Below are positions 1 to 16,086 of a DNA stretch of 24,000 nucleotides, piece after piece (within the stretch, counting starts at the first letter, position 1; each line of letters begins with the position of its first letter). The stretch lies in the NCBI RefSeq assembly GCF_047237965.1, contig NZ_JBDFLX010000003.1:95801-119800 (forward strand). The letters are read 5' to 3'. Origin of the DNA: Noviherbaspirillum sp. 1P10PC. GTDB lineage: Bacteria > Pseudomonadota > Gammaproteobacteria > Burkholderiales > Burkholderiaceae_D. A model generated the notes under the pieces. The model was not told where the DNA came from and searched no databases. It saw only the letters and a list, made by a program, of their open reading frames with translations. The position numbers and the translations under genes are program-made.

Positions 1-162
1 TGGAAACGAACTGCGGCGCTGCGGGGTGCGTCCCATGCCGCCGAAACCGCGCCCGCCGTGGCCCCGACCGCTGGAGCGGCCGCGCTCGTCTTCTAGTTCT
101 CCGGCGTCGCCGACGAAGGCTTGTGGGGTGAATTCCCCGCCAAAGACGGTATCCTGTTTCAT
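1..162 (-). CDS. 5' end of an ORF not in the supplied track, running out of the window. Hypothetical protein starting MKQDTVFGGEFTPQAFVGDAGELEDERGRSSGRGHGGRGFGGMGR
   Basis: ATG at 160-162 (minus) overlaps the TGA of the upstream PLP-enzyme ORF (ATGA at 159-162). AAGGAG lies 6 nt upstream. My hand translation stays open to position 1. Confidence 0.4.
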   Translation of the reverse strand, partial: MKQDTVFGGEFTPQAFVGDAGELEDERGRSSGRGHGGRGFGGMGRTPQRRSSFP

Positions 163-1295
163 CTTGAGCTCCTTGATGGGAATGGGGTGGCCGCCATGCA
201 GTAGTGACCGGTTCTTGCTTCGGCCGTGGCTCGGGTTTCATTGACCGCTTGCGCCAGCGCGCGGCCGGCGGCATCGATGTGGGCGACGTGGTGGCGCGCG
301 CAAAGCAGGAAAGTCAGCAATCGGCTGACGCCGTCGCAGGCCAGCGTCACGATGGCGCGCACACCGCGTCGCATCAGGCCCTGCTGCAGCGCCATCGCGC
401 TTTGGCCCGGGGCGTGGAAGGATTGCACCGGGAAGGGCAAGCGGCCCACCGGCATCAAGCCGGAACCTGTAGCCCATGCCTGCAATCGTTGCGCCAGCAG
501 GCACAGCGTTTGCCGCAGCGCTTCGCCATGCAGCCGGTTGATGTCCAGCGCCCGCCGTGCAGCTTGGATTGCGACAGCCGAGGGTGGGCTGCAATGCACC
601 AGGGTAGCGGACTGCGCGCGCCATTGCCGGATGAATTCAAAGTCGCCCGCCAGCACCGCCAGCGGCGCGCCAAATGCCTTGGCCAGCGAAGCGCCGGACA
701 ATATCCGCGGACCGCTTAAGCCATGCCAGCACAGGCTGCCGCCGCCATTCCGGCCCAGCGGATGCAGCGCATCGGCATCACCGCCGAGGATGCCGATAGC
801 CTGGGTGTCGTCCAGCACCAGGAAGCCGTCATGGCGGGCGGCGACCTGCGCATAAAGCGGCAAGGGCGCGATCGTGCCGCAGCCGGGACAGTAGCCATCG
901 CACACGATCACCGGGCGCCGTCCCTTGCGTTGTGCGACGGCGGCCAAGTCGGCAAGCTGGCCGGCATCCTGGTGCGGAAAGCAACAGAACGCGGCGCCGC
1001 GCACCGAGGCACATTGCGCCCCCCAGCGGGCAATAGGATAAGCGGCGGCGTCAACCAGGAAGGTTGTGTCCCGGCCCGCCAGCCTGCAGAACAGTTCGAG
1101 GAATAGGTGCAGCGTGGATGGCAGCAGCAGGGCTGCGCCGGTACTCTGCAGCCCGGCCAGCCGCGGCGCGAGATCCGTGGCTCCCGGCGGCTCCTCTAGC
1201 GCTGCCGGCCGCCCGAGGGAGAGTGCCGGCCACGGGCCGAGTTCGGCGCTGCCATGGCGCATGCCCAAGTAGAGCGCGGATGTAAAGTCCAGCAT
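159..1295 (-). CDS. PLP-dependent enzyme of the class I/II aminotransferase fold, alpha-oxoamine synthase-like (BioF/Kbl/SPT branch), divergent
   Basis: 378-aa ORF. SGASLAKAFGAP resembles the PLP-lysine motif (T/S-L-x-K-x-x-G). LVLDDTQAIGILG aligns with the D-D/E-A/S-H-x-x-G motif. GAGG lies 7-10 nt upstream of the ATG. Confidence 0.7.
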   Translation of the reverse strand: MLDFTSALYLGMRHGSAELGPWPALSLGRPAALEEPPGATDLAPRLAGLQSTGAALLLPSTLHLFLELFCRLAGRDTTFLVDAAAYPIARWGAQCASVRGAAFCCFPHQDAGQLADLAAVAQRKGRRPVIVCDGYCPGCGTIAPLPLYAQVAARHDGFLVLDDTQAIGILGGDADALHPLGRNGGGSLCWHGLSGPRILSGASLAKAFGAPLAVLAGDFEFIRQWRAQSATLVHCSPPSAVAIQAARRALDINRLHGEALRQTLCLLAQRLQAWATGSGLMPVGRLPFPVQSFHAPGQSAMALQQGLMRRGVRAIVTLACDGVSRLLTFLLCARHHVAHIDAAGRALAQAVNETRATAEARTGHYCMAATPFPSRSSR

Positions 1296-1327
1296 CGCTG
1301 CCTCGCCGTCTGGTCGCTAACCTGTGC

Positions 1328-3532
1328 TCACACCATCCGCTGTGCTGCTAGCCTCTGGCGCAGCAGGGTGGAAGGCAGGGTCGCATTGACCCGGGCATTG
1401 TTGTCGGCCGCGGACAAATCCACGCCGGACACTGCGCGGTAAGCATGCACGTAGCCCTGTACCTCGGGCCGCCAGAAGCGGGCCCAGTTCGCGCCTTGGG
1501 CAGCGTCATGCACACCGGCCCAGTTGCCGTATCGGATGCTGAGCAGCAATTGCTCGCCGAACACCCCTAGGTCGCGGAAGTTAAGCACATTGGTATCGCT
1601 CCAGCCCTGCATCCGCTTCATGGCGTCGACCCGGTCCATCCAGGGTTCGGGATAGGCAACCATCACCCTGGTCGGCAGGAATTCCCGGAATTCCGGCCGC
1701 GCCAGCAGCCATTGCTGCATCAGCATCTCGATGCGCGACGTGGATGGCAGGTCGCCGAACTGGTTGTGCGCGCCCTCGGCCAGGATCAGGTGGACCTCCT
1801 TGAGTGCGTTGAGCACCGGGAAGCCGTCAGCCACGATGGTGGTGTTGTCATCCTGGCGGTAGAACTGAATGGTGCGGTATAGCAGGTTATGGAAAGATTC
1901 CAGGAATTTTGAGCGGGCGTCGGCTGCCTGCATCTCGCCAATGGCGCGGCCTTCCAGCCGCAGGCCGTATTCATGGTTGTATTCATAATTGCGGCGCACT
2001 ACGCTTAGACGATGCTGTTCGTCCTGCACAAAGGCCCAGAGCAGGTTGTTGAGCGGGCGCAGGGGATCGACCTCGAAATTGGCCAGCGGGTCGAGGCGGC
2101 TGCTGGTGACACGCACATTCTGGAAGCGTCGGGTTACTGCGTTCAGGGTCTGCACCAGCATGCCTTCCTCGTGCCAGTAGGACCAGATCAGCTCCATCAT
2201 GCAAGGCGCCGCCAGTTTGCTGCGCAGGATGCCGGTGCAATCCTGGTACTGCCGTGGCGGCAGCTGATCCGGATCGTCGAACAGGCGGGTCTTGATGCTG
2301 ACGTCCTTGAGCTTTTCCCTTATCAGCGCGAGGTAGGGCAAGACATAGTCTTCGGTGCCATTGACCTGCTGGAGATATTCCTGCCAGAAGCGAGGCAGCT
2401 CGGGCGACAGACCGACCTTGCGCAACATGTATTCCCGGTCCTCTTCGGTGAAAGGAAATTCTTCCAGTAGCACACCGCAATTGACCATGACGAAAGCTTC
2501 GGTGGCAATCTTCAGCACGCGGTAGGCATCGGCATCGGTATAAGGCAGGTAGCGGCGCTTGGCCAGCTGGTGAAAGTTATGCACCAGCTCGGGAGCTGGG
2601 ACGAGCGGCTGTCGACGCAAGTCCGCGGCACCGCACAACAGATGATTCATGAAACGTTCATAGTTGTTGTAGCACATCGCATTGGTGCTGTTGCGGATCA
2701 CCAACCATAACGGCAGGTCTTTGGTCGGCTCGGCGCCAGTGCGGCGCAGAGTGACCGAGATATCGCCGCCGACGCGCCGCACGTGCTCATGGGCGGCATT
2801 CTCCATCCTGTACATAAGGCTGGTGCCGTCCGGGGACTCGCCGGTAATATGCATGACATTGGTGCCGGCTTTGGAATAGTTGGCCAAATACTCCAGCTGG
2901 CGCAAGGTCGCCCTGTTTCCGCCGGAAAAAGCAATACCATTGCCACCATCATGGCCGTCGGCGTCGCCCTCGGTCACAAGCTCGCGTGGCTCACCTTGCA
3001 ACTGGGCGCTCCCTGGGTTTATCGTCAGTGCTAATTTGCCCAGCGATTTACGATGGCTGATCCGGAGGATGAACGACTTTCCTGATTGCAGATTACTGCA
3101 TGGAAGCAGTTCGCATTGGTCATTAACTACCAGGGTATCGACTCTGAAGCCGGTATGCATCGTCAGCGTCAGGGCTTCGCAGCCGTCGCGTTGCAGCTTG
3201 ACGTACTCACTGTCCTGACTGCATACCTCGTATTCATTAACCGAAGCACAGGCGCTATAGACACCGGACTGCAAGTGATGGAATTCTACGCAACCATCAT
3301 CTTCGGTATTGCGTTCGTCAACTTGTATCCTTGTCAGGACTGCCTGTTCGGACGGGGGGCGGCCGGAACGCTTCGGCAACTGGGTATCGGTTTGGCCTGG
3401 CCCGTGGGCGGCGTCTGGTCTTTCGATCAGAAATATCCGCACATGGGCCCTAATGCGCACATTGGCATCGCCGCCGTCCCGCACGCAGACCTTCAGGGTG
3501 GCACCGTCATGGCCAACTGTATCCGTGTTCAT
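1328..3532 (-). CDS. Large hypothetical protein (734 aa): N-terminal beta-rich region plus a C-terminal helical domain of about 460 aa
   Basis: Uninterrupted 734-aa ORF with GAGGAG about 5 nt upstream of the ATG. TLKVCVRDGG...VRIF and DDGCVEFHHLQSGVYSA resemble a carboxypeptidase-regulatory/prealbumin-like beta-sandwich. The C-terminal part (ELIWSYWHEEGMLVQTLNAV and surrounding sequence) is not a family I can name. Confidence 0.8.
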   Translation of the reverse strand: MNTDTVGHDGATLKVCVRDGGDANVRIRAHVRIFLIERPDAAHGPGQTDTQLPKRSGRPPSEQAVLTRIQVDERNTEDDGCVEFHHLQSGVYSACASVNEYEVCSQDSEYVKLQRDGCEALTLTMHTGFRVDTLVVNDQCELLPCSNLQSGKSFILRISHRKSLGKLALTINPGSAQLQGEPRELVTEGDADGHDGGNGIAFSGGNRATLRQLEYLANYSKAGTNVMHITGESPDGTSLMYRMENAAHEHVRRVGGDISVTLRRTGAEPTKDLPLWLVIRNSTNAMCYNNYERFMNHLLCGAADLRRQPLVPAPELVHNFHQLAKRRYLPYTDADAYRVLKIATEAFVMVNCGVLLEEFPFTEEDREYMLRKVGLSPELPRFWQEYLQQVNGTEDYVLPYLALIREKLKDVSIKTRLFDDPDQLPPRQYQDCTGILRSKLAAPCMMELIWSYWHEEGMLVQTLNAVTRRFQNVRVTSSRLDPLANFEVDPLRPLNNLLWAFVQDEQHRLSVVRRNYEYNHEYGLRLEGRAIGEMQAADARSKFLESFHNLLYRTIQFYRQDDNTTIVADGFPVLNALKEVHLILAEGAHNQFGDLPSTSRIEMLMQQWLLARPEFREFLPTRVMVAYPEPWMDRVDAMKRMQGWSDTNVLNFRDLGVFGEQLLLSIRYGNWAGVHDAAQGANWARFWRPEVQGYVHAYRAVSGVDLSAADNNARVNATLPSTLLRQRLAAQRMV

Positions 3533-3573
3533 CTTGCTCTCCTCAATAAACGTTCAAAGGTTTGTTGATCGGT

Positions 3574-4893
3574 TCACGCCGCGATCCGCATCGCATTGGC
3601 CAAGCCGCTGGTACCTACCACTGCGCAAGCGGAAGACATTTCGAAGGTGCTGCGCAGCGCCCAGTAACCGAGCAGACGGGCCACGATTTCGCTTTCATCT
3701 TCCGGCCCCAGCAGTCCGTTGGCACGGGCCTGTCCCAGGACGGCAAACACCAGGGTCGGCGAAGCCCGATACATCCCGCCGGGATCGCGGTTCCATGCGG
3801 CGAACCGGGCAACAAGCTGTGCTGGCTGCCGCTTTTCAACTTCCAGCACCTCGGCCAGGGTGCGTCCAGCCAGGAGCCTCGGGCGATGGTTGACGAGGAG
3901 CGCGACAAAGCCCGGCAGGCTGGCATCCAGACACGCGAAAATTTCTTGCCGCTCCGGATCCAGGCCGTCGCGCGGATACAGTGTTTCCCAAAGCGCCGCC
4001 AGCTGCGCCCATTGCGGATGCGGATAGAGTGCATCGCCGATAGCGCAGGACAGGCGTACCCGGAACCACGGGACGGGGTGGGGGTCGTCGGTCGACAACC
4101 GGAACACGAAGGGCCGCGGCAGGCTGACCACGCCGATCAGGCCATAGGTCGAGCCGATGCCGACCCGGGCCACCGACCAGAAGTCGGCGACGATCTCGGA
4201 AATCCAGCGCTCCCACAACATCCAGGCCTGGCGTTCGCCGGAAGCGCCGCGCTGCATGCCGCGCAGCACCGGCCGCAGCGAGGCCACCAGGTCCAAGAGC
4301 GCGGCAGCCTGGTGACCTACCTCGTGCACCAGCGAGGAAGCGATGCCGCTTCCTACCATGCGCTCGCGCGGCACCCGGATGATAGATACCGGGTTGGCGC
4401 CGCCGCCCGGCAGCCGGGTGCGGGCGCGGCGGATGGCGGCGCCGACACCGCGGTCGAGGTAGCAGATGATGGGCGGTACTTCGTAATAACGTCCTGGCAG
4501 GGCCAGGGCATCGGCGCACAGGATGTCCAGGCCCGACATCCACACCCCGACCTCATGCTCGCTGCGCTGGGTGATGACCGCATTGAACATGTCGAACTGG
4601 GTCAGCACTGCGTTGAACTTCAACCGCAGCAGGGAAAAGCGGCGTTGTGCCGCCTCGGCGCCGGCTTCCTGGCCGGGGCCGCGCAGCCAGTCCAGGAAAC
4701 CCTGCACCATCCCGCGCAGCTCATGGCGCCCGGCGACCAGGTAGCGCTCTATGCCGACCTGGGCACGCGGCAGTAGAGCGGCAGCCGGCACCATGGTTTC
4801 GTGCAGCGCGAAGGGTCGCACCCGGGACAACCGGGACAGCAGTGCCCGTGCCTCATGCTCCAGCATGCGCGCGGCGAGGGGGTGCATGGCCAT
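3574..4893 (-). CDS. Putative zinc metallopeptidase-like protein (HExxH)
   Basis: 439-aa ORF. HEVGH is encoded at 4312-4326 (cac gag gta ggt cac on the minus strand). The start lies 6 nt after the stop of the upstream 457-aa ORF. No signal peptide is obvious. Confidence 0.7.
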   Translation of the reverse strand: MAMHPLAARMLEHEARALLSRLSRVRPFALHETMVPAAALLPRAQVGIERYLVAGRHELRGMVQGFLDWLRGPGQEAGAEAAQRRFSLLRLKFNAVLTQFDMFNAVITQRSEHEVGVWMSGLDILCADALALPGRYYEVPPIICYLDRGVGAAIRRARTRLPGGGANPVSIIRVPRERMVGSGIASSLVHEVGHQAAALLDLVASLRPVLRGMQRGASGERQAWMLWERWISEIVADFWSVARVGIGSTYGLIGVVSLPRPFVFRLSTDDPHPVPWFRVRLSCAIGDALYPHPQWAQLAALWETLYPRDGLDPERQEIFACLDASLPGFVALLVNHRPRLLAGRTLAEVLEVEKRQPAQLVARFAAWNRDPGGMYRASPTLVFAVLGQARANGLLGPEDESEIVARLLGYWALRSTFEMSSACAVVGTSGLANAMRIAA

Positions 4894-4899
4894 GATGGA

Positions 4900-6273
4900 T
4901 CAAGCCCCCAGCAGCACGATGACCTTGCCCTTGCGCACCCAGCGGCCGGTGTTGCGGCGCGGACCTGCGCCCATCCCCTGTTGCTGCATCATGCCGCCTT
5001 GGCCGGGCACGGCTGGCATCTGCTGCCCGCCGCTGGCCAAGGCTGGTGCCAGCTTTTGCGCGGCGCTGATTAGGGCGCGCTGGGCAGTGGTCATCGGATC
5101 GCCGCCGGGAGAGGCAGCGGCATTCTTAACGGTTTGCGCAGCCAGCTTCACGAACTGCTTGGCGCCCTCGAATTCCCGGTCCTCGTAGGAAAGGGACTCG
5201 GCTTCCAGTCCGAGCGCCTTGCCGGCAGCATTGGCTAGGCCCGAACCGATCTTCGCGCCCAGTGGCCCGCCGACATAGCCGCCCAGGGCTGCGCCCGCCA
5301 TCGGCAGCACCTTGCCCGCAGTACTCTTCAATACCGAACCAAGCGCCTGCCCGATGGGCGAGCGGATCGCGGTGCCGGCGACCCGGCCGACAGTCTTGAT
5401 CAGGTCGCCCAGGAATTGCTCCAGGTCGGCCTCGTTGTTCACGTTGAGCAGTTCGGCAGCCATTTCTAGCTGCTCGGCTTCGCCAAGCACTTCACCTTCG
5501 GCTTCGCCGCCCCATTCACTCTGGCCGAATTCGCCGAATTGGCCGAATGCTTCCTGCTGGCCAAACTCTCCCTGCTGGCCGAATTCACCGAACTGGCCGA
5601 ATGCTTCCTGCTGGCCGAATTCCAGCGAGGTGCGATCGATGTCGTGCATGATGATCTCCTTAGAAAGTGGCGCGCTGTTGCGCCGGGCGATCCTTGCCGG
5701 ATCAGTGGGGGATGAAGAAAACGCGTCGGTGCTGCTGCGGGCACAGGGATGGCCATGCTTCAGCAGCAATCCGGGTGCGTGCTCGGTGCTTGCGGCACAG
5801 AGCGCATGGCGCGCGACGGGGACGGGAAACGGCGCTGCCGACGTCGATGCCAGCTCATGTGCAGCGGCGGCCGCCAGCCTCACGAATGCCTTGGCTGCCT
5901 CGAATTCTTGGTCTTCCGGGCTGAGGCCCTCCAGTTCAAGACCAAATACTTCGCCTGACAGCAGAGTGGCCGAAGGGCTCGCTGTTCCGGAGTTGACCAG
6001 GAAAGGCAAGGTGGCGACTGCCGCCTCTTGCAGCAGTTCGCCCAAGGCATGTGCTCCTAGCGCAGTTCCCATCCCCAGGCGTTTGAACAGGGTACAGAGG
6101 AAGCGCTTCAGTCCTTCGCCGCCGCTTTCCATCAATATCGTGGCCAGTTCTGTTTCCTCGGCATCGTCCAGGATGCCGGGGGCTTCCAGTTCTGTCCCGA
6201 AGGCTCCCGTGCCGAAAGCATCCCGGTACAGAGCATCGGTTTCCGGATTGAATTTGACTAGCGGGCTTTCCAT
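4900..6273 (-). CDS. Internally duplicated acidic-repeat / glycine-zipper protein (457 aa; halves aa 1-208 and 209-457)
   Basis: GAGGAAG lies 5 nt upstream of ATG 6273. Both halves share E-rich helix, FL/FLG, Gly-rich segment and GLE-x-E-x-LS-x-ED-x-EFE-x-AK-x-FV-x-LA motifs. The second half contains AGAALGGYVGGPLGAKIGSGLANAAGKALG (GxxxG ladder) and ends GRWVRKGKVIVLLGA. An internal AAGGAG plus ATG sits at 5647-5649. Confidence 0.7.
   Translation of the reverse strand: MESPLVKFNPETDALYRDAFGTGAFGTELEAPGILDDAEETELATILMESGGEGLKRFLCTLFKRLGMGTALGAHALGELLQEAAVATLPFLVNSGTASPSATLLSGEVFGLELEGLSPEDQEFEAAKAFVRLAAAAAHELASTSAAPFPVPVARHALCAASTEHAPGLLLKHGHPCARSSTDAFSSSPTDPARIARRNSAPLSKEIIMHDIDRTSLEFGQQEAFGQFGEFGQQGEFGQQEAFGQFGEFGQSEWGGEAEGEVLGEAEQLEMAAELLNVNNEADLEQFLGDLIKTVGRVAGTAIRSPIGQALGSVLKSTAGKVLPMAGAALGGYVGGPLGAKIGSGLANAAGKALGLEAESLSYEDREFEGAKQFVKLAAQTVKNAAASPGGDPMTTAQRALISAAQKLAPALASGGQQMPAVPGQGGMMQQQGMGAGPRRNTGRWVRKGKVIVLLGA
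5523..5622 (-). repeat. 54-bp tandem repeat (about 1.9 copies) encoding EFGQQEAFGQFGEFGQQG / EFGQQEAFGQFGEFGQSE
   Basis: GGCCGAATTC(G/A)CCGAA(T/C)TGGCCGAATGCTTCCTGCTGGCC occurs at 5523 and again at 5577 (period 54 nt, 18 codons). GAATTC starts a partial third copy. Confidence 0.85.
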
Positions 6274-6392
6274 GCAACTTCCTCGGCAATTTTAGGATTT
6301 TTGCCGGCTTGCTGCTGCCGGCTATGCCCTTGCATTCGCAAGCGGCGTGCCAGCCTGATTAGGTGTTTTTGACGGGAAAGTGGAAGGCACGA

Positions 6393-6450
6393 GCGAAGTT
6401 GGCTTCGCTTTTCAGCGCGAACGGCCGAGGAAATGCGAAGCTGGCTTCGC
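6393..6450. repeat. Two copies of a 16-nt palindrome, GCGAAG(T/C)TGGCTTCGC, 42 nt apart
   Basis: Copies at 6393-6408 (followed by TTTT) and 6435-6450. Each can form a 6-bp stem with a 4-nt loop. They lie between the operon start (6273) and the IS6 transposase gene. Confidence 0.6.
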
Positions 6451-6547
6451 ATGTGACGAACAGTTGTTTTGTCGCATTAAGCGAGGTGGCCCCCGCCATC
6501 CTGCTGTCTTTGAAGAATGAGCAGGCGGCCGTGCTGAATACCAAGGG

Positions 6548-7219
6548 ATGCGATTTCCGGTCGACGTGATTCTGGTTTGTATTCGCTGGTACGCCGCCTA
6601 CCCCTTGAGCTATCGGCATCTCGAAGAAATAATGCAAGAACGCGGCGTGGTGGTTGACCATTCCTCGATCAATCGCTGGGCGATCCGGTTTCTGCCAGTA
6701 TTGGAAAAAGCCTTCCGAAAGCACAAGCATGCCGTCGGCACCGGCTGGAGGATGGATGAGACCTACATCAGGGTCAACGGCGACTGGAAGTATCTGTATC
6801 GGGCAATCGACAAGCAAGGCCAGACAATCGACTTTCTGTTGACGGCCGAGCGTAATGCAGCTGCCGCTAGGCGCTTCTTCGAGAAAGCCATGCAGCACAA
6901 CACGGTGCCTGACAAGGTTACGATGGACAAGAGCGGCGCCAACCAGGCAGCGCTGGAGCGACTGAACCAGGAACGCGAAGTACCGATTACGATTCGGCAG
7001 GTCAAATATCTCAACAATACTATCGAGCAGGATCACCGCGAGATCAAACGCATCACGCGGCCGATGCTCGGTTTCAAATCATTCCAAGCGGCGCGCGCGA
7101 TCCTGGCCGGCATCGAACTGATGCATATGATTCGCAAAGGCCAGTTCACGCTGAAGCGTGAAGGCATGTCGTCTGCCGACCAATTTTACGCATTGGCAGG
7201 ACAATTCCGCCCGGCGTAG
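6548..7219 (+). CDS. IS6-family DDE transposase
   Basis: 223-aa ORF collinear with IS26/IS6100 transposases: VILVCIRWYAAYPLSYRHLEE, WRMDETYIRV, YLYRAIDKQGQTIDF, MDKSGAN, QVKYLNNTIEQDHREIK. The frame is closed by TGA at 6518-6520, so the N-terminus is a few residues shorter than in IS26/IS6100. Confidence 0.9.
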   Translation: MRFPVDVILVCIRWYAAYPLSYRHLEEIMQERGVVVDHSSINRWAIRFLPVLEKAFRKHKHAVGTGWRMDETYIRVNGDWKYLYRAIDKQGQTIDFLLTAERNAAAARRFFEKAMQHNTVPDKVTMDKSGANQAALERLNQEREVPITIRQVKYLNNTIEQDHREIKRITRPMLGFKSFQAARAILAGIELMHMIRKGQFTLKREGMSSADQFYALAGQFRPA

Positions 7220-7252
7220 GGAGTCGCTGGCAAAATCCGGTACCACTGTGCC

Positions 7253-7376
7253 TTGCCCTCGCTAAGGCGACACAAACTGACATTGCGCACACCCGCCCTG
7301 CTAAGGAACACGCTCCCATTCGGTCGTTGGCATGACACGGAGCCACAGTACACGTGCTAAGCCAGAAATCAGACAT
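7253..7376 (-). pseudogene. Possible 5' remnant of a gene translationally coupled to the upstream antitoxin-like gene and interrupted by the IS6 end
   Basis: ATGTCTGA overlap: the ATG at 7374-7376 shares sequence with the TGA at 7369-7371 of the 149-aa ORF. The frame (MSDFWLSTCTVAPCHANDRMG...) reads without a stop into the IS6 terminal repeat at 7252. The product is not recognisable. Confidence 0.25.
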
Positions 7377-7818
7377 GCGACAGCGTAGCCACCGGCCGGT
7401 CAAAATGGTATGCCATCGCTTCTAAAATTTTGCCAGGTGAAGTGCGAACCACTTCCCTAGGACGTTTGGCATTCAAATAGTTATTTGGAGATTCCATCCA
7501 AGCAGCAATTTCGATTCCTGGTGCGTCGCCGAATGCATTAACTATCGCTTTCATGATGGGCAGTGGCTTGTAGCCTTGATCAAATTGATATTGTGGATAA
7601 CAGTCCCTATCGCCGCGTTGTATGGCAAAAATACACTTCTCATGCCTCCAGCGGTTCACTTTGGCAGCGCCAGCATTACGTAGGCCCTGAAAGTCAGGTG
7701 CGGATCTCGCGGTTAAACCTGCGCCGATTTGTTCTGCTGTGAGCCATTGCGTGCCGGCAAAGATTAGCTTTATCGCTTCTTGCATCATCCGGACCTTGCG
7801 AATATTTAGTGCCTCCAT
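7369..7818 (-). CDS. Xre/MbcA/ParS-type antitoxin-like protein (DUF2384-like C-terminal domain)
   Basis: The C-terminal segment IVNAFGDAPGIEIAAWMESPNNYLNAKRPREVV fits the F-G-x(n)-A-x-x-W-x-x-x-P-N-x-x-L-x-x-x-x-P pattern of the toxin-binding domain. The upstream CYPQYQFD resembles the P-x-W-Q-F element seen in these antitoxins. Confidence 0.5.
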   Translation of the reverse strand: MEALNIRKVRMMQEAIKLIFAGTQWLTAEQIGAGLTARSAPDFQGLRNAGAAKVNRWRHEKCIFAIQRGDRDCYPQYQFDQGYKPLPIMKAIVNAFGDAPGIEIAAWMESPNNYLNAKRPREVVRTSPGKILEAMAYHFDRPVATLSHV

Positions 7819-8647: not shown

Positions 8648-9245
8648 TCCACCCTAGGATATCTATTACATTCGTTGCTAGATATTCAGAATGGAGTTTT
8701 CGGTATGTCGTCTCCTGTTCAACGAAAGCTCGAAACTCAAACTGTTCTCCATAGGTTGCCAGTCGCCTAAATACTTCGCGGTTAAGTGCTTCAATTTCCC
8801 GATTGGTGGTATTGATGAACTGGTTCAAACCACAAAATATAAGTAATCCAATAGGAATTGTATGAACAATTCTTCCGACAAAGAAACGAGCCGGTAAAAT
8901 CCTTTTATTAAAAATTCTATTCCATTCATCAGGAATATGTGTATTCTCAGAATATAAACCGATCGCTCGATTTGCCATTCTTAAAATAGAGCCAGCTAAT
9001 AAACCACAAGTAAAGGCTTCAGTCGAATATTTCTGATGCGCATCGATAATAATATGTTTCTCATCTTTGTTTTTTATCCGCCAGTCGTCAAATGATAGCT
9101 GAGATGTTGTTTCATTAAGTGCAATGGAAGCCAAAGGAATTGATTTCTGGATATTTTTTACTTTGTCAGCATATATGGCGTTTTGATGCAGAAGCGCCCG
9201 AACAGCATTTTCCGATCGCGTAAGAAAACTTATAGCACTTTCCAA
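8601..9245 (-). CDS. Hypothetical protein (214 aa), AT-rich, with two hydrophobic segments
   Basis: Uninterrupted ORF in the most AT-rich part of the window. Hydrophobic stretches: AFTCGLLAGSILRMANRAIGL and FFVGRIVHTIPIGLLIFCGLNQFI. No recognisable family. Confidence 0.5.
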   Translation of the reverse strand: MESAISFLTRSENAVRALLHQNAIYADKVKNIQKSIPLASIALNETTSQLSFDDWRIKNKDEKHIIIDAHQKYSTEAFTCGLLAGSILRMANRAIGLYSENTHIPDEWNRIFNKRILPARFFVGRIVHTIPIGLLIFCGLNQFINTTNREIEALNREVFRRLATYGEQFEFRAFVEQETTYRKLHSEYLATNVIDILGWNDYDCYFEDMRRMLL

Positions 9246-9468
9246 TTTTTTTCCCTAAAAATATCCAGCCTGATAATCAACATCTTACTTAACTTAGTTT
9301 TCATTCAAACTCATGATCCATCTTTCAGATAATTTAATTAAGGCAATTGCAAAAATTTGACAAATTTCACTCTTTGTCCGGCCAAAAATCGGATTAGCTA
9401 GTTAAAGAATATCAAGCTGGATTTTCTCATTCGTGCGCGGAAAAGGACTAGGTCCTTCGTCGAATCCT

Positions 9469-9795
9469 TTACTGAATTTTAGACTTTGAATAGGCTTGAA
9501 GAACATCTTCTTCAACTTTAAGATATTTGGAGATGTATTCAATCTGTCGCTCAATAGCCTCCCAAGTTAGATTAAATGTGCTGTGAAGCTGCTCTAACTC
9601 GGCAGTTGGATTTGCTTGATTTTCTAACTCTATTTTAACTGCAACCATAAGCTGTAACAGTTCGCGAGACGAATGATTAAGAATAATTAGTTGCTTTTCT
9701 TCTTTGGTAAGCATTATCTGATCTCTTTTCTGAATATAAATTTTCGTCTCCAAAACATGTGGTAGGCAATATCTTTTAAATTTAAAACCGTTCAT
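9469..9795 (-). CDS. Small hypothetical helical protein (108 aa, or 81 aa from the Met at 9714)
   Basis: Only ORF in this AT-rich segment. Heptad-like helical sequence (EEKQLIILNHSSRELLQLMVAVKIELENQ...). Divergent from the XRE gene. Both possible starts have weak ribosome-binding sites. Confidence 0.4.
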   Translation of the reverse strand: MNGFKFKRYCLPHVLETKIYIQKRDQIMLTKEEKQLIILNHSSRELLQLMVAVKIELENQANPTAELEQLHSTFNLTWEAIERQIEYISKYLKVEEDVLQAYSKSKIQ

Positions 9796-9863
9796 TTATG
9801 CCATGGAAAATTGCCAATAATTTCAAATAAAACTACGAGCTATCCACGACCACTTTTTAAATT

Positions 9864-9892
9864 ATTCACTCAACTTAAAATTTCGAGTGAAT
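9864..9892. promoter_or_regulatory. Inverted repeat ATTCACTC-N13-GAGTGAAT in the divergent intergenic region (candidate operator)
   Basis: Perfect 8-bp arms at 9864-9871 and 9885-9892, about 100 nt upstream of the XRE start and 70 nt upstream of the 108-aa ORF start. Confidence 0.3.
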
Positions 9893-9995
9893 GTGCGACT
9901 GTTCAAGAAAAACAATAACTTCTGTATCTTTCGTAAGACACAAATACTAAGGATTACTTAATACCCTGTCAAGTAAGAATATTGAAACTGCGGGG

Positions 9996-10316
9996 ATGAA
10001 AAAAAATGGTAACCACGGAACTGTTTTCTCAGCGCGTCTCCGACAGGCGCGCCTCTTAGCAGGCTTGACTCAGATCGAGCTTGGTGTGCTTGCTGGAATT
10101 GACGAGTTTTCAGCCAGTGCACGGGTAAATCAATATGAGCGAGGAGTGCACGCTCCCGATCATGGAACCGCCGCGCGACTCGCAGCTGCTTTAAAGGTAC
10201 CGGTCAGCTACCTCTTTGAGCCCAATGACATGCTCGCAAAAGTGATTTTTACAGCTGGAAAACTTGATGAAAATGGGCTTGAAAAAGTTCTCGACTATAT
10301 AAACGGCCTTGCTTAG
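9996..10316 (+). CDS. XRE-family helix-turn-helix transcriptional regulator
   Basis: FSARLRQARLLAGLTQIELGVLAGIDEFSASARVNQYERGVHAPDHGTAARLAAALKVPVSYLF is a typical HTH_3/XRE pattern (L-x-x-x-R-x-x-x-G-L-T-Q-x-E-L-A ... Y-E-x-G). Confidence 0.85.
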   Translation: MKKNGNHGTVFSARLRQARLLAGLTQIELGVLAGIDEFSASARVNQYERGVHAPDHGTAARLAAALKVPVSYLFEPNDMLAKVIFTAGKLDENGLEKVLDYINGLA

Positions 10317-11504
10317 TAACTTGAACAAAATGCATCAATTGTTTGATACTTGTGAGATACAGTTACAAGTGATGCAAGCCGGCCCATATGGGACGCCGCT
10401 GCGCAAATGCGTTTCGGCAGTCGCCATCACCAAGCTCACTTGCGACTGGTCGCAAACCGCATCGGCATTCAATCCTATTCGGAAAGACCAAAACCGGGCC
10501 CCGCTCGGTTGCCGAAGCTGTCTTCAGGTCGTTCCTTGACCGTGACAAGTTCGAAGGCTAGCCGGTCAGCCTGCGCGGGGGGACATGCGATCAACGCTGA
10601 CCGTTCATCGTTCCGATCGCCTGCCGGTGGCGCCAATAACTGCCAGTGGAGGAGAGACGAGAATCCTTGGCCAGAGGGAACCCGTCAGGTCGGGCGCCCG
10701 GCCGGATTGGAAGTTGGCGTGCGAAAGAATATCTATATGGATGCCGCCAGCATTGCCAAGGCACGGAGACTGAGGGAATGGCAACTTCAGTATTGGACCC
10801 AGGATCGGGTTGAATATGATGCCCCAGAAATGCAAGAAGGTGTCTTACTAAGAGCATTACATTGATGCCGCCATTTGCCCAGTAATAAACTTCTGACACA
10901 AGGAGAAAAGAGGTTGCTCGCTTACATCGACCTTCGGATGCAGCTTTAAGCTGCTAGCCTCTATGGTATTGGCTGACAACTTCCACATTTCTAACGCGAG
11001 CTCGAAGCTCATCGCTCTTATTGGGTTTGAGCCGTCTCAGTCTCACCGATCTGCCATCACTTGTTTCTTACTTACGCAACTTATTGACGTGTCTGCTTTG
11101 CTTCTTCGAGCCATGCCGAGTTGTCGAACGCTTACGGTTAGCAACTCTGCACGGGACTTACTGCCGTGAACCAGCATCGCCTAAACAACGCGGGCCGTTT
11201 TGTTGGCTTGGGCTACACAGGCAATGTTCATGTTTCTTCGACCTGCCAGTTGTTGCAGCCAGCAATCCACAGTCCCTGCCTTATGCATAGTGTGATGCGG
11301 GTGATCGAGGACTGGCTAGAAGGAAGCACATTCAAACGGCCCGTGCGCTATGCCAGGCTGCTGACCGATGCCCACTCAATCCCGACTGACATCCTCCCGC
11401 CGCTGTTTGAGCCTGTTGTGGTCAAGATGACGGCGAACCAGATGACGCTGCAACGCTACCAGATCGGTACCCGCGACGGCGCAGCGGTGCACTATATGCA
11501 AAGT

Positions 11505-11525
11505 GGGCCGTCCGCATGACGGCCC
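11505..11525. terminator. GC-rich hairpin downstream of the recombinase gene's stop codon at 11538 (possible terminator)
   Basis: GGGCCGTC-CGCAT-GACGGCCC, with a perfect 8-bp stem. No strong T-tract on either side. Confidence 0.35.
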
Positions 11526-11537
11526 GGGGTGAATGAA

Positions 11538-12617
11538 TCATCCAGCTTTGTCCACCTCTGGCGTCGGCTTCGACTGCTGTGCCGCAAGGGCTGCTTCCCG
11601 CTCCTCGACGGTGGCGCGAAGATAACAGTTATAAACCCACCTGCCGCGGCCGTCGCCATGGCCCAGATCGTTGCTGAGTCTGGACAGTGCTTTCTTTTCA
11701 CTCATTTGCAGCTCGCCTCGGTAATACTGAAACTGTTCCCACGTGAAGCTACGCCGAAGCGAATGCTGTGCATCTTTCCCGGCAATACCGAGTTTCTTCA
11801 TGCGCTTGTGGTTGCATGCCATGGCCGCTTTCAAGCTCACCGAGTCGACCAGGAATTCCTGGTGCTCCAAAACCTTTAGCGCCGCGTCTACAGCCACCAT
11901 CGCCTCTGCCGCCTTTGTGGGGCAAAGAACTACGGATCTGGGACGCCCACCTTTAGGGCCTTTCCTCACGATAATCGGCTGACCGTTTTCGAGCGCTCGC
12001 TTCCATTCCAACAGCGACCCCTCGCTCTGGATGGCCTCTCGTCCTCTGAGGCCGATTGCGTGCTCCAGTAGCAGGATCGCTGCCGTATCTTCCCTCGCCT
12101 TCTCCAGCGCCGTTTCCAGCACATCGACGTGGACTACGGTGCCGGTCCCAATCCGGGATGCGCTAGGCACGCCAAGCAATTTGCTTGAACACGTTACTAC
12201 CGCGAACTCACCACGCCCGACGCACTTCAACGCGCGACGGATATGCGACGCCTCGTTCTGGATCGTCCGGTTAGTCACCTTTCCAATGCGGGACTGGATA
12301 TATGCCCGGAATTGTTTGAAGGTCAAAGTCAATGGATCAACCTTTCCCCAACGCGCTTCCTTCGCAAATGCTTCAAGTGCGATGAAGGTCGTCCGCATTT
12401 TCGGATTCATTGTTGTCGCCGCACGCTTCTGTCCAAGGGCCGATTGCATAAATTTTGCGGTCATTGAATCCGAGTCAGCATAGAGAATCAAAACGCGCGT
12501 GGAGTACAGCGCCCTTGCCTTTTTCTTCAACCGGTCAGCGGCACGTTTTGCGGCACGGTTTGCCTTCGCAGCCTGGCCAGCCGTTGCAGCGCCAGCCACG
12601 TTCACTCGCTTCGCCAT
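11538..12617 (-). CDS. Tyrosine recombinase / integrase-domain protein (360 aa from the SD-supported start)
   Basis: Catalytic-type motifs in order: GLRGREA (Arg), KGGRPR (Lys region), HSLRRSF (H-x-x-R), LGHGDGRGRWVYNCYL (His ... Tyr). GGAGGTG lies 4 nt upstream of ATG 12615-12617. The ORF-track start at 12764 adds an implausible Cys-rich leader. Confidence 0.8.
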   Translation of the reverse strand: MAKRVNVAGAATAGQAAKANRAAKRAADRLKKKARALYSTRVLILYADSDSMTAKFMQSALGQKRAATTMNPKMRTTFIALEAFAKEARWGKVDPLTLTFKQFRAYIQSRIGKVTNRTIQNEASHIRRALKCVGRGEFAVVTCSSKLLGVPSASRIGTGTVVHVDVLETALEKAREDTAAILLLEHAIGLRGREAIQSEGSLLEWKRALENGQPIIVRKGPKGGRPRSVVLCPTKAAEAMVAVDAALKVLEHQEFLVDSVSLKAAMACNHKRMKKLGIAGKDAQHSLRRSFTWEQFQYYRGELQMSEKKALSRLSNDLGHGDGRGRWVYNCYLRATVEEREAALAAQQSKPTPEVDKAG

Positions 12618-14210
12618 AAACACCTCCATAGTGGTCACTACAAGTAGGAAAAATCTGTAAAGCCGGGCACAGCAACAGCAAGGTGATACAAGCCAAAACG
12701 GGGAACACCGTTTGGTTACTGCGGAGTTCAGATATCGGTCGGCTACCGCTGTCCGCGGGGGCACTTAGCCTGGGTACTACGCTGAGAGGGCACTACGAGG
12801 GCACAAACGTTCAAACGTCACTTCATACCAACGCTTCAAATCGTGGCCCTGTCCGAGCTGGTTGGAACTCTCCTGACGTCGAGTCACTACCAACCTTCTG
12901 AAGTAAAAAAAACGCAACGAGCAGCAGCGATCTACCCAGCTAGATCGGGCCGGCATGGTGTGCGTCAAAAACCTTTCTTGGGGAGTTTTTGGCAACCGCA
13001 TGGAGCTCGAAATCCGCTTACTCATGGGCTGCAAATTCAGGGCTGGCTCTAACTGCGAAACCTACTTTTCGGATCGCGGAAGCGACCGCTAGAATTGGTT
13101 GGGCGGGGGCTGGCCAGGATCGATGTGCCACAAGTTTTCGGAAGTTTGTTGGAGGGAGCTATTGAGCAGAAATTGGCTTCTTACCGGATTGCAATGACAC
13201 GCTGTTTGCATAATCAAAACAGACTTTTATGAAGGCGAGACATCACCAGGTGGCATGCTGGTGTGAACCAGTGTTCGGAGACTCCGCGGTCCGGGCAAGT
13301 TCCGGAGCTTCGCAGTGTGCGATGCCCAATGGCTGTTGGGTGCTGCGGCAGTACGGCAGGCCGTGGCAGCTCTTGCGGATAGGTTGAAACGGCTTGGGTT
13401 GAGCGCTCCTGCGAGGCCCTATCTGGCTGGATGCTGAGAGATGCTTGCACGTGGCGACCACAGAAGGAAGCCATCGTATTGTGGAACAAAGTTGGAAGGT
13501 CGGCAGAGCCGATAGCTTGCGGGTCAAGCAGGTTATTCGCTTCCGCTGGGCGGATGAGAAACCTAGAGTCTTTGGCAGACTTTTGTCGCAGATGCCGCGA
13601 GAAAAGCCCGTAGTTGAATTTGAAGCTGCCGCTTAGCGACATGGAAGTATGTCATTACAATTGAAGCGTTGCAAGTATTTGGATGGCTTTTTTATGGTAA
13701 GCCGCATTCCATCTGAAGAGACTTATCAGATTTGGTTTCGACTTGTCACTTCGGCGAAAGGACCATGTTCGGCCAAAAGCGAACTGGGATTGGAACGGCC
13801 TGTTGCGGCGGCGATCTGGTAAACAGCACAATCGCCCGTAGAAGTTAGGAAAACGATGCAACTTTTATGAGCACTTCGAGCTGGATCGCCTAGTGCTTTG
13901 ATGGCTGCGGAGTCTTAGCAGAGGTATAAGGGAGCCAAGGGATCGGCTCTAAAGAATCGACCTGCAAGTCAGCTGCGTTCGGCAATCGAGGGATTCTCGT
14001 GCACGGCGAAAATTTGAATTTGGGAATTGTTTTGAAGCTGCCGCTGGGCGGCGTGCGAATATTAGACTATCGAAATTCGATAAGTCAACTGCTATTCGCG
14101 AAGATGCCGTGACCAGGTCAACAAAATGACCATTTGCAAATCGCATGTGAAACACACAAGGATTTGCGCGAGGCGAAGCAATTCGGGGTCTTAGAGTATT
14201 ACTCAAGGTA

Positions 14211-14314
14211 TGAGTAGTTGCTACTCACACCTGAGTAAGCGCTACTTAGAGTGTGAGTAAACGCTACTCATGCCGTGAATAGTCTCTACTCAGCGCGTGA
14301 GTATTTATTATTCA
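14211..14314. promoter_or_regulatory. parC-like centromere/operator: five 17-bp palindromes TGAGTA-N5-TACTCA at 21-22 bp spacing
   Basis: TGAGTAGTTGCTACTCA at 14211, TGAGTAAGCGCTACTTA at 14232, TGAGTAAACGCTACTCA at 14254, TGAATAGTCTCTACTCA at 14276 and TGAGTATTTATTATTCA at 14298. A compressed relative, AGAGTATTACTCA, is at 14193. The array lies immediately upstream of the ParM-like gene. Confidence 0.8.
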
Positions 14315-14351
14315 TGCAAAAAGATTAACCCTTTCACTTTTCTTGAAACCC

Positions 14352-15419
14352 ATGAACACAATTGCCGAACAAGATCTCTTTCCAGTGTTTGAAAGAACCA
14401 TTATCGCGCTCGACGTTGGGCGCAGCGGTGTCAAAGCTATTGCGCTGTACGACGGCATGAAGATTCCGCTGGTGTACCCGGCGATCGTCGCTCGTGCAGT
14501 CAAGCTCGCAGACGAGGAAACGATGGCGCGCATTGCCCACGAAATCGTAACGGTGGATAACGCTGATTACTTTACCGGTGAAGCAGCCCGTCTATATACC
14601 CAGGCTGAAAATAATGCTGGCTTAACCAATGACTGGACCGACGGCGCCGAATATAAAGCACTTGTGCTGGGCGCAATTTCACGATTTAAGCATATGGGAG
14701 TGAGAGGGTTGAATGACGCGTATGTCGTTGTAGGAACTCCGGCGGATCACTACCTTTCTGGCCGCGCCGCATTAGAAGACAGCACATCATCTGTTCTAAA
14801 GAATGCGCAAGTAAAATCTTTGTCGCAGCCTATCGGCGTATACCTTTCTCATGTTTTGGATCAGAAGGGCAGCGCTATTTTGGATAAGCATCGTGATTCG
14901 TTTGGCCGCCGCACTTCTTGGATTATTATCGAAGTAGGACACTTCGATACCGGCTTCACGTACATAAAGGAAGGGGCGCATCAACAAGACCGGGATGATA
15001 TTGCGGAAGGAATTAGTGCTGCGGCAAAAAATCTAAAGTGCATTCTGCAGGCAAAAAAGATACGGCGCGACATGCTGGAATGCGACGAGGCATTGCGTAT
15101 CGGGAAAATTCTTTTGTTTGGCAAAGAGCAGCCAATTACCGACGAGATAGTTGAAGCTGTTGAACCGGTCGCACGAAAAATTATCGAAAAGGCAGAAATT
15201 CTTTTTGCAAGGGAAGCTTCTAAGGTCAACGGTATTTTGCTGGCGGGTGGTGGCAGTAATGCGATTTTGCATCAGCTAAGAGAGAAATGGTCGAATACGA
15301 TTGCATTGCCAGAGCCGCGAATGTCAGTTGCGGAAGGGTATTTGCGTTATGCAATTAGCGTTATGCAAAAACGTTTGAAAGAACAGAATTTGAACAATGC
15401 GACGGTGGTGAATGGCTAG
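14352..15419 (+). CDS. parM: Actin-like plasmid segregation ATPase (ParM/StbA family)
   Basis: Actin-fold motifs in order: IIALDVGRSGVKAI (phosphate 1), VVVGTPADHY, IIIEVGHFDTGF (phosphate 2, divergent), ILLAGGGSNAI (adenosine). The track start is TTG at 14343; the first ATG is at 14352. Confidence 0.8.
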   Translation: MNTIAEQDLFPVFERTIIALDVGRSGVKAIALYDGMKIPLVYPAIVARAVKLADEETMARIAHEIVTVDNADYFTGEAARLYTQAENNAGLTNDWTDGAEYKALVLGAISRFKHMGVRGLNDAYVVVGTPADHYLSGRAALEDSTSSVLKNAQVKSLSQPIGVYLSHVLDQKGSAILDKHRDSFGRRTSWIIIEVGHFDTGFTYIKEGAHQQDRDDIAEGISAAAKNLKCILQAKKIRRDMLECDEALRIGKILLFGKEQPITDEIVEAVEPVARKIIEKAEILFAREASKVNGILLAGGGSNAILHQLREKWSNTIALPEPRMSVAEGYLRYAISVMQKRLKEQNLNNATVVNG

Positions 15420-15891
15420 CCGGCCGGAACGAGCGAAGCGACGTCTGCAGATTGTCGTAAAGGAGTCTGCTTGTCCTGGACTGATCGCTAACTTGGCTCA
15501 TTTACCAGAAGGATGCGAAAACGTATTTATACGTGCCGTACTTGTGGAATGGTTTACATCTAATAACAATGACACTGAATTGGCTACCCGTCTTGTAGAG
15601 CAATACCGGACTATTGAATTTCGCAACGAGCTTGGAATTAGGACCGGTGAACAAGGCTGTGTTTGCCTGCGAGACCCGACTACGCCATTGCAAGCGGATC
15701 GCGGCGTGGGCCAGACAGTTTCGTTACAGACGACACCATTCTCTAACGAGACTGGAAATCATTTGTCCCCGGTCCGTCTTCCGCCGTCGGAGAGTTCTGC
15801 GCCGACTGCTGCGTCGCTAGTTCGTGGGGAACTGCCTATGGCAGCACCGGCGCCGGCGTTTGATGTCGAATTTGACCCAGACCAGTTCTAA
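15412..15891 (+). CDS. Probable ParR-like centromere-binding adaptor (159 aa)
   Basis: The start overlaps the ParM stop (ATGGCTAG, 15412-15419). Basic N-terminus (RPERAKRRLQIVV) compatible with a ribbon-helix-helix. Low-complexity linker and an acidic/aromatic C-terminal tail, FDVEFDPDQF. The assignment is by position and architecture only. Confidence 0.55.
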   Translation: MASRPERAKRRLQIVVKESACPGLIANLAHLPEGCENVFIRAVLVEWFTSNNNDTELATRLVEQYRTIEFRNELGIRTGEQGCVCLRDPTTPLQADRGVGQTVSLQTTPFSNETGNHLSPVRLPPSESSAPTAASLVRGELPMAAPAPAFDVEFDPDQF

Positions 15892-16086
15892 GCGCAACAG
15901 AGCGAGCTCAATATTGCGAGCGCAAGATGTGGCATTTTTTGAGGTGACCTAACTTTTGTGGACACTCCCGTTTCATAAATTGAGTCAATGGGAGAAAGCA
16001 TGAAGAGAGAGGTGGCCCCGTTCGTTTGGACAGAGACTGGCAAGGCTTAAGTGGAACCTGGCTGATGATGGGTCTTTCCGAGTGGC

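Follow-up and report, generated by a model that had tools for sequence, protein, structure and literature searches.

Positions 1-6273 of a 24,000-nucleotide stretch of the Noviherbaspirillum sp. 1P10PC genome (contig NZ_JBDFLX010000003.1, positions 95,801-119,800 of the forward strand; this whole stretch is called the window below) raise a simple question: what do five tightly coupled genes of unassigned function, one for a protein with an HExxH motif and another for a protein with a long glycine zipper, do together? The original prediction, made from the sequence alone, took them for an operon that may encode a maturation or toxin-like module. Here we describe comparative evidence that these genes belong to a larger cassette of constant order that is found in at least four phyla, that is preceded by a predicted sigma-54 promoter and that, in related genomes, carries a variable set of genes for cell wall hydrolases and nucleases. 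The cassette may serve the regulated release or delivery of antibacterial toxins.

The five coupled genes

All five open reading frames (ORFs) lie on the minus strand where the original prediction had placed them:

4900-6273, minus strand: 457-amino-acid ORF, genes A and B fused (from the ORF list)
3574-4893, minus strand: M, 439-amino-acid ORF (from the ORF list)
1328-3532, minus strand: L, 734-amino-acid ORF (from the ORF list)
159-1295, minus strand: P, 378-amino-acid ORF (from the ORF list)
1-162, minus strand: ORF5, first 54 codons, starting at 162 and running off position 1 (window edge)

The first four are separated by 6, 41 and 32 nt and P overlaps ORF5 in an ATGA at 159-162, which agrees with the spacings originally reported. 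Purine-rich Shine-Dalgarno sequences precede the first, third, fourth and fifth ORFs, as had also been noted (GAGGAAG 5' of the 457-amino-acid ORF, GAGGAGAG 5' of the 734-amino-acid ORF, the weaker GGCGAGGCAG 5' of the 378-amino-acid ORF and AAGGAG 5' of ORF5), and the 439-amino-acid HExxH ORF has only a G-run (GGGGG) upstream. The guanine-plus-cytosine (GC) content of the five-ORF region, 59-69%, is unlike that of most of the remaining window. Since the proteins encoded in the window contain no signal peptides and no hydrophobic segments of transmembrane grade, the possibility that they are classical transmembrane or secreted proteins was rejected.

The genes of the proposed operon are real. 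Chance is not the explanation, as their order is repeated in 80 species loci and the homologues of each protein number in the hundreds to thousands. The limits of the operon, in contrast, had been drawn too narrowly. The five genes are not the whole unit; they open a larger cassette that extends past position 1, and the cassette's own promoter and activator sites lie at 6338-6450, outside the span of 1-6273 that was originally considered.

A conserved cassette in diverse bacteria

One genome per species was scanned, and at least 350 genomes were found to encode M. Eighty loci were fetched and their six-frame ORFs were searched with profiles built in this analysis; 59 of the loci had enough flanking sequence for the following counts:

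L directly after M: 58 of 59 loci
P: 54 of 59 loci
Amidohydro_2 gene: 57 of 59 loci
sigma-54 activator gene: 55 of 59 loci
at least one module gene upstream: 55 of 59 loci
PG_binding_1 protein and/or further module gene between P and Amidohydro_2: 50 of 59 loci

The cassette thus has the order A, B, M, L, P, followed, in relatives only, by effector genes, a further paralog of the glycine-zipper module (C), an Amidohydro_2 gene and a sigma-54 activator gene. Synteny of the homologues in other genomes is strict, and the loci come from Proteobacteria, Nitrospirota, Acidobacteriota and Planctomycetota (at least four phyla). They include Nitrosomonas, Nitrosospira, Nitrospira, Methylococcales, Variovorax, Janthinobacterium, Massilia and Duganella, as well as Bradyrhizobium, Methylobacterium, Cupriavidus, Competibacteraceae, several Acidobacteriota, an anammox planctomycete and Candidatus Electronema. 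Ensifer, Rhizobium and Paraburkholderia phymatum STM815 also carry M on megaplasmids or chromids, in plasmid records that are without annotation.

The statement that no characterized system has this gene set holds for the literature and the annotation resources tested. Searches of Pfam, NCBIfam, PHROGs and PADLOC with the four complete products assigned none of them to a known pathway: in Pfam, NCBIfam and PADLOC, no significant match was obtained for A, B, M or the helical part of L, PHROGs gave only weak glycine-rich matches to the core proteins, and sequence searches of solved structures with the three largest products, run with single sequences and with profiles, left A/B, M and the helical part of L without a match. 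The exceptions are generic, namely a beta-sandwich recognized in L and, in P, a fold remotely like that of BioF. Named homologues of M and L are called hypothetical proteins, save for a mis-transferred BioF name on L in UniRef. All-against-all clustering of the neighborhood ORFs, in which overlapping frames of the GC-rich DNA create noise, brought no additional conserved family to light and, in particular, no transporter or ATPase. No paper describing the cassette was found in the full-text literature (subscription literature was outside the scope). A phage origin was considered and rejected since a search of 2.9 million viral contigs did not find the cassette; no relative of M is present in IMG/VR. 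Megablast against plasmids, run with the five-ORF region and with the remainder of the window, yielded nothing useful.

Genes A and B and the glycine-zipper module

The first product was originally described as internally duplicated and as ending in a basic tail. Both features were confirmed: residues 1-208 and 209-457 align with each other in BLASTP (E = 4e-17, 35% identity), and the tail, GRWVRKGKVIVLLGA, is encoded at 4903-4947. The two halves correspond to two genes:

5650-6273, minus strand: gene A part, residues 1-208 of the 457-amino-acid ORF, aligning with separate genes of Janthinobacterium and Thauera for proteins of about 200-213 amino acids
4900-5649, minus strand: gene B part, residues 209-457 of the 457-amino-acid ORF, with the conserved start MHDIDRT

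In Janthinobacterium and Thauera, A (about 200-213 amino acids, starting with MNR) and B (about 230 amino acids, starting with MHDIDRT) are separate genes, as they are in most genomes, and Nitrospira has B without A. In the window, the stop codon of gene A is absent and the start signals of gene B are kept inside the frame (AAGGAG at 5656-5661, ATG at 5647-5649); judging from these comparisons, the 457-amino-acid ORF is an in-frame fusion of the two genes. A frameshift or sequencing artefact was ruled out because the fusion recurs in independent contigs and genera: the closest contigs (L004-L006) also have it, in versions of 460 and 477 amino acids, and about 16 of the 80 species loci, from several genera, have A and B in a single ORF. 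This recurrence suggests that A and B work together physically. Over the 80 loci, the median identity to orthologues is 64% for the core of B and 35% for A.

The A part consists of an acidic N-terminus, a helix with an FL motif, a reduced glycine stretch, the EDQEFEAAKAFVRLA helix and a degenerate tail, ARIARRNSAPL. The B part consists of acidic-aromatic repeats, ELLNVNNEADLEQFLG, a basic glycine zipper (5203-5388), EDREFEGAKQFVKLA and the basic tail mentioned above. A, B and C, the stand-alone paralog of about 213-230 amino acids that is present in relatives only and itself has more than 2,000 relatives, share a common module of about 190 amino acids, and the A/B and C profiles align in hhalign with a probability of 100% and E = 5e-39. 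The module begins with an acidic helix, ELAxELLxVxxEAELDxFLG, which is followed by a basic Lys/Gly-rich GxxxG ladder, by LELE...EDxEFExAxxFVRxA, by an Ala-rich stretch and by a basic tail, GRWxRRGxxIxLxG (or GRWxRxGxxIxLxG). The same module forms the C-terminus of PG_binding_1-Ntox16 and PG_binding_1-OmpA proteins in Nitrospira. In the 457-amino-acid product, the GxxxG ladder at residues 296-357 has a maximum Kyte-Doolittle 19-residue mean of 1.16, and the product has no match to a Pfam Gly-zipper family at E <= 0.1. The N-terminus of C carries a conserved Cys motif, MH..CxCxxC (13925-14551 in locus L001, 14131-14781 in locus L003 and more than 2,000 relatives); this motif, which is without counterpart in A and B, is possibly a small metal-binding knuckle.

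ORF5 and the variable effector slot

The 54-codon fragment of ORF5 encodes an acidic-aromatic leader, ELEDERGR and then Gly/Arg-rich sequence (MKQDTVFGGEFTPQAF...ELEDERGRSSGRGHGGRG), and it has no Pfam or NCBIfam match. Its leader matches that of the gene located 3' of P in loci L001 (E = 1e-4) and L005, and the same pattern is seen in L014, L057 and L042; because of this match, ORF5 is very probably the start of a PG_binding_1-type effector gene. In relatives, the gene directly after P encodes an acidic-aromatic leader, E(E/D)ERGR, an Arg/Pro- or Gly/Arg-rich stretch and PG_binding_1, after which comes Amidase_2 in at least 11 loci (55-73% identical) and GIY-YIG in others. Pfam searches with 96 ORFs located between P and Amidohydro_2 in related loci gave the following domain counts:

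PG_binding_1: 17 ORFs
PG_binding_3: 9 ORFs
Amidase_2: 6 ORFs
GIY-YIG: 5 ORFs
Peptidase_M20: 4 ORFs
OmpA: 4 ORFs
VanY: 2 ORFs
DUF2272: 2 ORFs
Trypsin-like: 2 ORFs
Peptidase_M23, 3D and HNH: 1 ORF each

Ntox16 is also found in the slot. Some effectors end in a C-terminal copy of the glycine-zipper module, no signal peptides are visible in the effector N-termini inspected, and the content of the slot differs between related genomes. The proteins with Peptidase_M20 and M20_dimer come from four loci, those with DUF2272 from two and the trypsin-like proteases from two (L007-L086); all of these may be effectors or accessory enzymes. A strict leader motif shared by module and effector proteins, [FYW]xPE[TPASE], was rejected: it is 4- to 10-fold enriched over background in both kinds of ORFs, yet no more than 23 of 182 module ORFs and 2 of 37 effector ORFs contain it, for which reason we call the leaders simply acidic-aromatic.

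A predicted sigma-54 control region

The region upstream of the 457-amino-acid ORF contains the following elements:

6338-6352, minus strand: sigma-54 (-24/-12) promoter TGGCACGCCGCTTGC, exact match to TGGCAC-N5-TTGC
6393-6408, minus strand: proximal upstream activator site, palindrome GCGAAGCCAACTTCGC (sequence read)
6435-6450, minus strand: distal upstream activator site, 16-bp palindrome GCGAAGCCAGCTTCGC (sequence read)
6464-7219, plus strand: IS6-family insertion sequence with the transposase ORF at 6548-7219 (DDE_Tnp_IS240, E = 9e-43)

The promoter element lies 64 nt 5' of the first ATG and is the only zero-mismatch TGGCAC-N5-TTGC in the 24-kb window. When related loci were scanned with one mismatch allowed and GG and GC kept, 58 of 69 proved to have the element 5' of their first module gene; the expected number is 0.045 per 700 nt. 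The palindrome GCGAAR-N4-YTTCGC is present in at least one copy in 67 of 76 loci and in both copies in 43, across phyla; its positions are about 56 and 98 nt before the -24 element, and the two copies are 41-42 bp apart across phyla (42 in the window). In 63 of 66 cases, combinations of promoter and palindrome stand at the position of the cassette. The palindromes are most simply read as putative binding sites of the cassette's own sigma-54 activator, whose gene is adjacent in 55 of 59 loci, usually on the opposite strand at the far end, and whose product has an unassigned N-terminal domain of 100-125 amino acids followed by AAA+ (Sigma54_activat, AAA lid) and HTH_8 domains. In the source genome, the activator gene, if present, would be located beyond position 1. 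At the level of these predicted elements, the genes form one sigma-54-dependent transcription unit that is equipped with activator sites of its own.

The IS6 element, whose transposase is matched by transposase genes of Polaromonas and Janthinobacterium plasmids, is not part of the cassette and marks its upstream boundary in the window. The junction is 13 nt beyond the distal palindrome, and homology to the nearest relative, locus L004 (94% nucleotide identity), ends at 6463/6464. The control region appears to be intact because both the element and the end of homology lie beyond the distal palindrome. In L004, the upstream neighbor is instead the receiver-domain end of a regulator gene.

M, a predicted zinc metallopeptidase

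HExxH followed by a helix with ExxxD (EAISD, ENIAD and EAIGD being examples of the latter) is the gluzincin pattern. M has HEVGH at residues 190-194 (4312-4326) and, 38 residues further, EIVAD within SEIVAD (4183-4200), which provides a candidate third ligand, Glu233, plus Asp237. The HEVGH motif pointed out in the original prediction is conserved: an alignment of 29 homologues, of 65-81% identity, shows no substitution at H190, E191, H194, E233 or D237. In the AlphaFold2 model (predicted local distance difference test score, pLDDT, of 74), M is mostly helical, with two strands directly before the HExxH helix, and E233 and D237 fall within a predicted helix, 221-256, as is expected at the motif level for a third zinc ligand. 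M is thus a predicted zinc metallopeptidase of the HExxH...ExxxD type. It shares with the gluzincins of clan MA(E), i.e., thermolysin, neprilysin and angiotensin-converting enzyme, the succession of the two helices; no match of its sequence or modeled fold to a peptidase family was found, and the 38-residue spacing and an invariant GAAIRRARTRLPGGG loop are particular to the M family. Single-sequence and profile searches of Pfam, NCBIfam and Protein Data Bank (PDB) sequences gave no match for M, nor did a Foldseek search with its model find a matching fold among PDB and viral structures. M has more than 5,700 homologous clusters at 90% identity and 988 representative clusters at 50% identity, and its median identity over the 80 loci is 66% across phyla.

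L, a two-part protein

L, which has more than 2,000 homologous clusters at 90% identity, is divided into two regions:

about 2783-3505, minus strand: N-terminal tandem beta-sandwich (Ig/pilin-like) domains (AlphaFold2, Foldseek)
1331-2767, minus strand: C-terminal helical domain of about 480 amino acids (alignment)

The two N-terminal domains are modeled with a pLDDT of about 90 and match pilin and Ig folds in Foldseek. The C-terminal part is not folded by the model (pLDDT below 50), and the PDB matches of the model are uninformative on the conserved domain since only the Ig-like domains are confident. Conservation differs between the two parts: the C-terminal domain has a median identity of 59% and, in the alignment, many invariant His, Glu, Asp and Trp residues, whereas the N-terminal part is hypervariable and is detectable in only 4 of 80 loci. 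An exact look-up of the 734-amino-acid protein returned nothing useful. The homologue of L in Janthinobacterium agaricidamnosum (UniRef W0V5F8, P0080) is named '8-amino-7-oxononanoate synthase' and is without such a domain; the name probably leaked from the neighboring P gene.

P, a divergent relative of alpha-oxoamine synthases

The fourth product, originally described as an atypical pyridoxal phosphate (PLP) enzyme, is a divergent alpha-oxoamine-synthase-like (BioF/Kbl) PLP-fold protein that falls far below the family cut-offs. It matches TIGR00858 (bioF) with E = 7e-17 and 61 bits against a cut-off of 426, and it aligns over about 300 residues with the 8-amino-7-oxononanoate synthase (AONS) structure 5jay (E = 1e-10). 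Like BioF/AONS, Kbl, serine palmitoyltransferase and CqsA, P keeps the Schiff-base lysine, Lys206 (678-680, SLAKAFG aligned with TLDKAAG), which is present in the five orthologues inspected, and the DD motif with the PLP-binding aspartate (DDTQ at 801-812 in place of DDAH). Unlike these enzymes, it scores below every family cut-off, has no counterpart of about 55 N-terminal residues of the AONS structure, and has both catalytic histidines, which we take to be His133 and His207 of Escherichia coli AONS, replaced, one by Tyr (AAYP vs NHAS) and the other by Gln (DDTQ vs DDAH). P may therefore bind PLP and probably does not catalyze the classical condensation. Its median identity over the 80 loci is 47.5%. 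In five loci, L052, L053, L067, L071 and L076 (Methylobacterium, Aquabacter, Mitsuaria and two Acidobacteriota), P is not detectable and the rest of the cassette is kept, so P may be dispensable or replaced there.

Possible function of the cassette

What the cassette does can be approached through its effector slot. It is possible, and our confidence in this falls just short of even, that the locus is a tightly regulated cassette for the release or delivery of antibacterial toxins or effectors, with M as a maturation protease. The cassette would normally be silent and would be switched on at the sigma-54 promoter by a dedicated enhancer-binding protein acting on the two palindromes. The module proteins A, B and C would be masked membrane-active or carrier units, in which acidic helices would cover the basic glycine-zipper segment until processing; M would mature the module proteins and/or remove the effector leaders; and L would be a scaffold, with its variable Ig-like domains giving target or cargo specificity. 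Together, these components would release or deliver signal-less effectors against competing bacteria. We infer such proteolysis, membrane activity, export and antibacterial role from the gene content, the conservation, the regulatory elements, the catalytic motifs and the types of effector domains described above. The toxin-like or maturation module of the original prediction is supported in so far as the slot after P is polymorphic, and the mechanism attached to it, in which the HExxH protein could process acidic N-terminal parts, is a plausible conjecture. The immunity role suggested for the 734-amino-acid or the PLP protein found no support.

Several observations weigh against a toxin cassette. 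The glycine zipper, a feature that had been linked to membrane-inserting peptides, is too weakly hydrophobic for a classical transmembrane helix. A crude signal-peptide heuristic, which does not cover cytoplasmic immunity proteins, revealed no immunity-like gene beside the amidase and nuclease genes. The cassette contains no conserved ATPase, transporter or membrane protein, which leaves envelope crossing and the energy source unexplained; the roles of M, L and the module are drawn from motifs and context because they have no fold or family match; and P, devoid of the two catalytic histidines, and Amidohydro_2 are unaccounted for.

Caulobacter CdzC/CdzD are contact-dependent glycine-zipper bacteriocins, and the cassette resembles them and other glycine-zipper peptides in its long GxxxG ladders and in its small, paralogous, co-expressed candidate membrane-damaging proteins. 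It differs from CdzC/CdzD in having no type I secretion genes and in that its proteins are much larger and have acidic flanking helices and a basic tail; from membrane-active glycine-zipper peptides in general, the module is set apart by its low hydrophobicity and by the lack of a Pfam glycine-zipper match. Holin-endolysin cassettes and holin-dependent (type 10) secretion likewise combine signal-less peptidoglycan hydrolases with small candidate membrane-active proteins, but here there is no transmembrane holin, spanin or phage linkage, four extra conserved genes are present and control is by sigma-54. As is characteristic of polymorphic toxins, one conserved leader precedes different catalytic domains (amidase or GIY-YIG) at the same position. 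Ntox16, GIY-YIG, HNH, peptidoglycan amidases and peptidases, and PG-binding adhesion domains belong to the polymorphic-toxin repertoire, and the trafficking routes listed for Ntox16 are the type II and type VI secretion systems (T2SS, T6SS) and the Photorhabdus virulence cassette (PVC) (Zhang, de Souza, Anantharaman, Iyer and Aravind 2012, PMC3482391). As in those systems, a constant N-terminal region is joined to interchangeable C-terminal toxin domains at one position of the locus (in relatives; the window shows the leader only). In contrast to them, no T2SS, T5SS, T6SS, T7SS or PVC marker and no secretion gene is found among the conserved neighbors, RHS or filamentous repeats are absent, no immunity gene was recognized in the cassette, and the conserved partners A/B/C, M, L, P and Amidohydro_2 are not described in that framework (PMC3482391).

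The effectors could also be aimed at the producing cell. In such a self-directed programme of regulated autolysis, wall remodeling or suicide (developmental lysis, altruistic release of cell contents or abortive infection), the glycine-zipper proteins would play the part of holins in the cell's own membrane, and the hydrolases and nucleases would act as endolysin-like enzymes and host-DNA nucleases. The effectors have no signal peptides, as is the case for endolysins, and PG_binding_1 matches many phage endolysin families; the lack of detected immunity genes, the absence of secretion machinery and the tight sigma-54 control, suitable for a dangerous function, fit as well. We nevertheless consider this explanation unlikely: none of the module proteins has a holin-like transmembrane segment, viral contigs are devoid of the cassette, the polymorphic-toxin domain Ntox16, like the exchange of catalytic domains after an unchanging leader, is a usual mark of toxins directed against other cells, L has hypervariable Ig-like domains that point to the recognition of varied targets outside the cell, and M, L and P would be unexplained here too. 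Less probable still is a non-toxic structure or stress system of the envelope, in which A, B and C would polymerize or coat the membrane and the peptidoglycan-binding proteins would anchor or remodel the wall, with a logic comparable to that of the sigma-54-controlled phage-shock response. Identities of 59-66% for M, B and L across phyla suit structural or enzymatic machinery better than they suit toxins, the OmpA and PG_binding domains serve for anchoring, and sigma-54 often controls functions of the cell exterior; GIY-YIG, HNH and Ntox16, however, have no obvious role in such a structure, and the changes of slot content between related genomes argue in the same direction.

Finally, the neighborhood of a protease, a PLP-fold enzyme, a hydrolase and repeated small genes, together with the strictly conserved N-termini (MHDIDRT) and C-terminal tails of the modules, could be taken to indicate a pathway for a modified peptide or small molecule, with A, B and C as precursors that are cut by M, modified by P and Amidohydro_2 and turned into a secreted product. 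We find this very improbable because the "precursors" are 200-230 amino acids long and are conserved over their whole length without a hypervariable core, no transporter and no known enzyme family of ribosomally synthesized and post-translationally modified peptides was found, P is without the two catalytic histidines, and the module is also fused to large enzymes.

Returning to the toxin cassette, a stronger version, which we regard as doubtful though worth stating, is that the locus encodes a previously unrecognized, self-contained machine for the delivery or release of protein toxins, of the rank of a new secretion system or a new type of bacteriocin particle. If this is true, the machine would consist of four protein families without a known fold and would be triggered by its own sigma-54 switch, and environmental bacteria, among them nitrifiers, methanotrophs, anammox and cable bacteria, would use it against the cell walls and DNA of their competitors. 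If the toxin reading is right, a widespread antibacterial weapon is absent from every annotation resource tested, in spite of its spread over 350 or more species-level genomes, those of ecologically important nitrifiers and plant-associated Burkholderiales among them, and over thousands of protein clusters from metagenomes. It would provide a new route by which signal-less wall hydrolases and nucleases leave, or act from, the Gram-negative cell, as well as a function for four large families of "hypothetical proteins". One promoter, two conserved palindromes and one activator offer a genetic handle for switching the cassette on, and should the toxin reading prove wrong, nine genes without a known function that are kept together at about 60-66% identity across phyla would still pose a clearly delimited problem.

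Other features of the window and of neighboring regions

In Thauera (locus L003), a CAP12-PCTIR TIR-domain gene of the defense type is located at 20359-21369, a few kb past the activator gene; it was seen in this one locus, and its proximity to the cassette may be coincidental. In the window, a 149-amino-acid ORF at 7369-7818 (minus strand) has a weak match to the C-terminal domain of Xre/MbcA/ParS antitoxins (E = 3.5e-4, below the Pfam cut-off). The position at lower coordinates where a RES-type toxin gene is expected is taken by the IS6 element, and the ORF may be an orphaned antitoxin gene. A short ORF at 7146-7403 has no Pfam match. Further away, several ORFs of 150-500 amino acids in 9000-24000, e.g., at 22486-23988, are without Pfam match, and the following features were recognized:

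11538-12764: Integrase_1 ORF
14343-15419: ParM/actin-like segregation ORF
16087-16917: IS3-type transposase parts, with an HTH_Tnp_1 ORF at 17213-17602 on the opposite strand
21269-21679: glyoxalase/bleomycin-resistance-like ORF

The megablast matches of the rest of the window are limited to short ones to Novosphingobium and Polaromonas plasmids. The GC content of 9000-24000 is lower and uneven (35% at 9-10 kb), and the sequence here resembles a mosaic of mobile or plasmid DNA.

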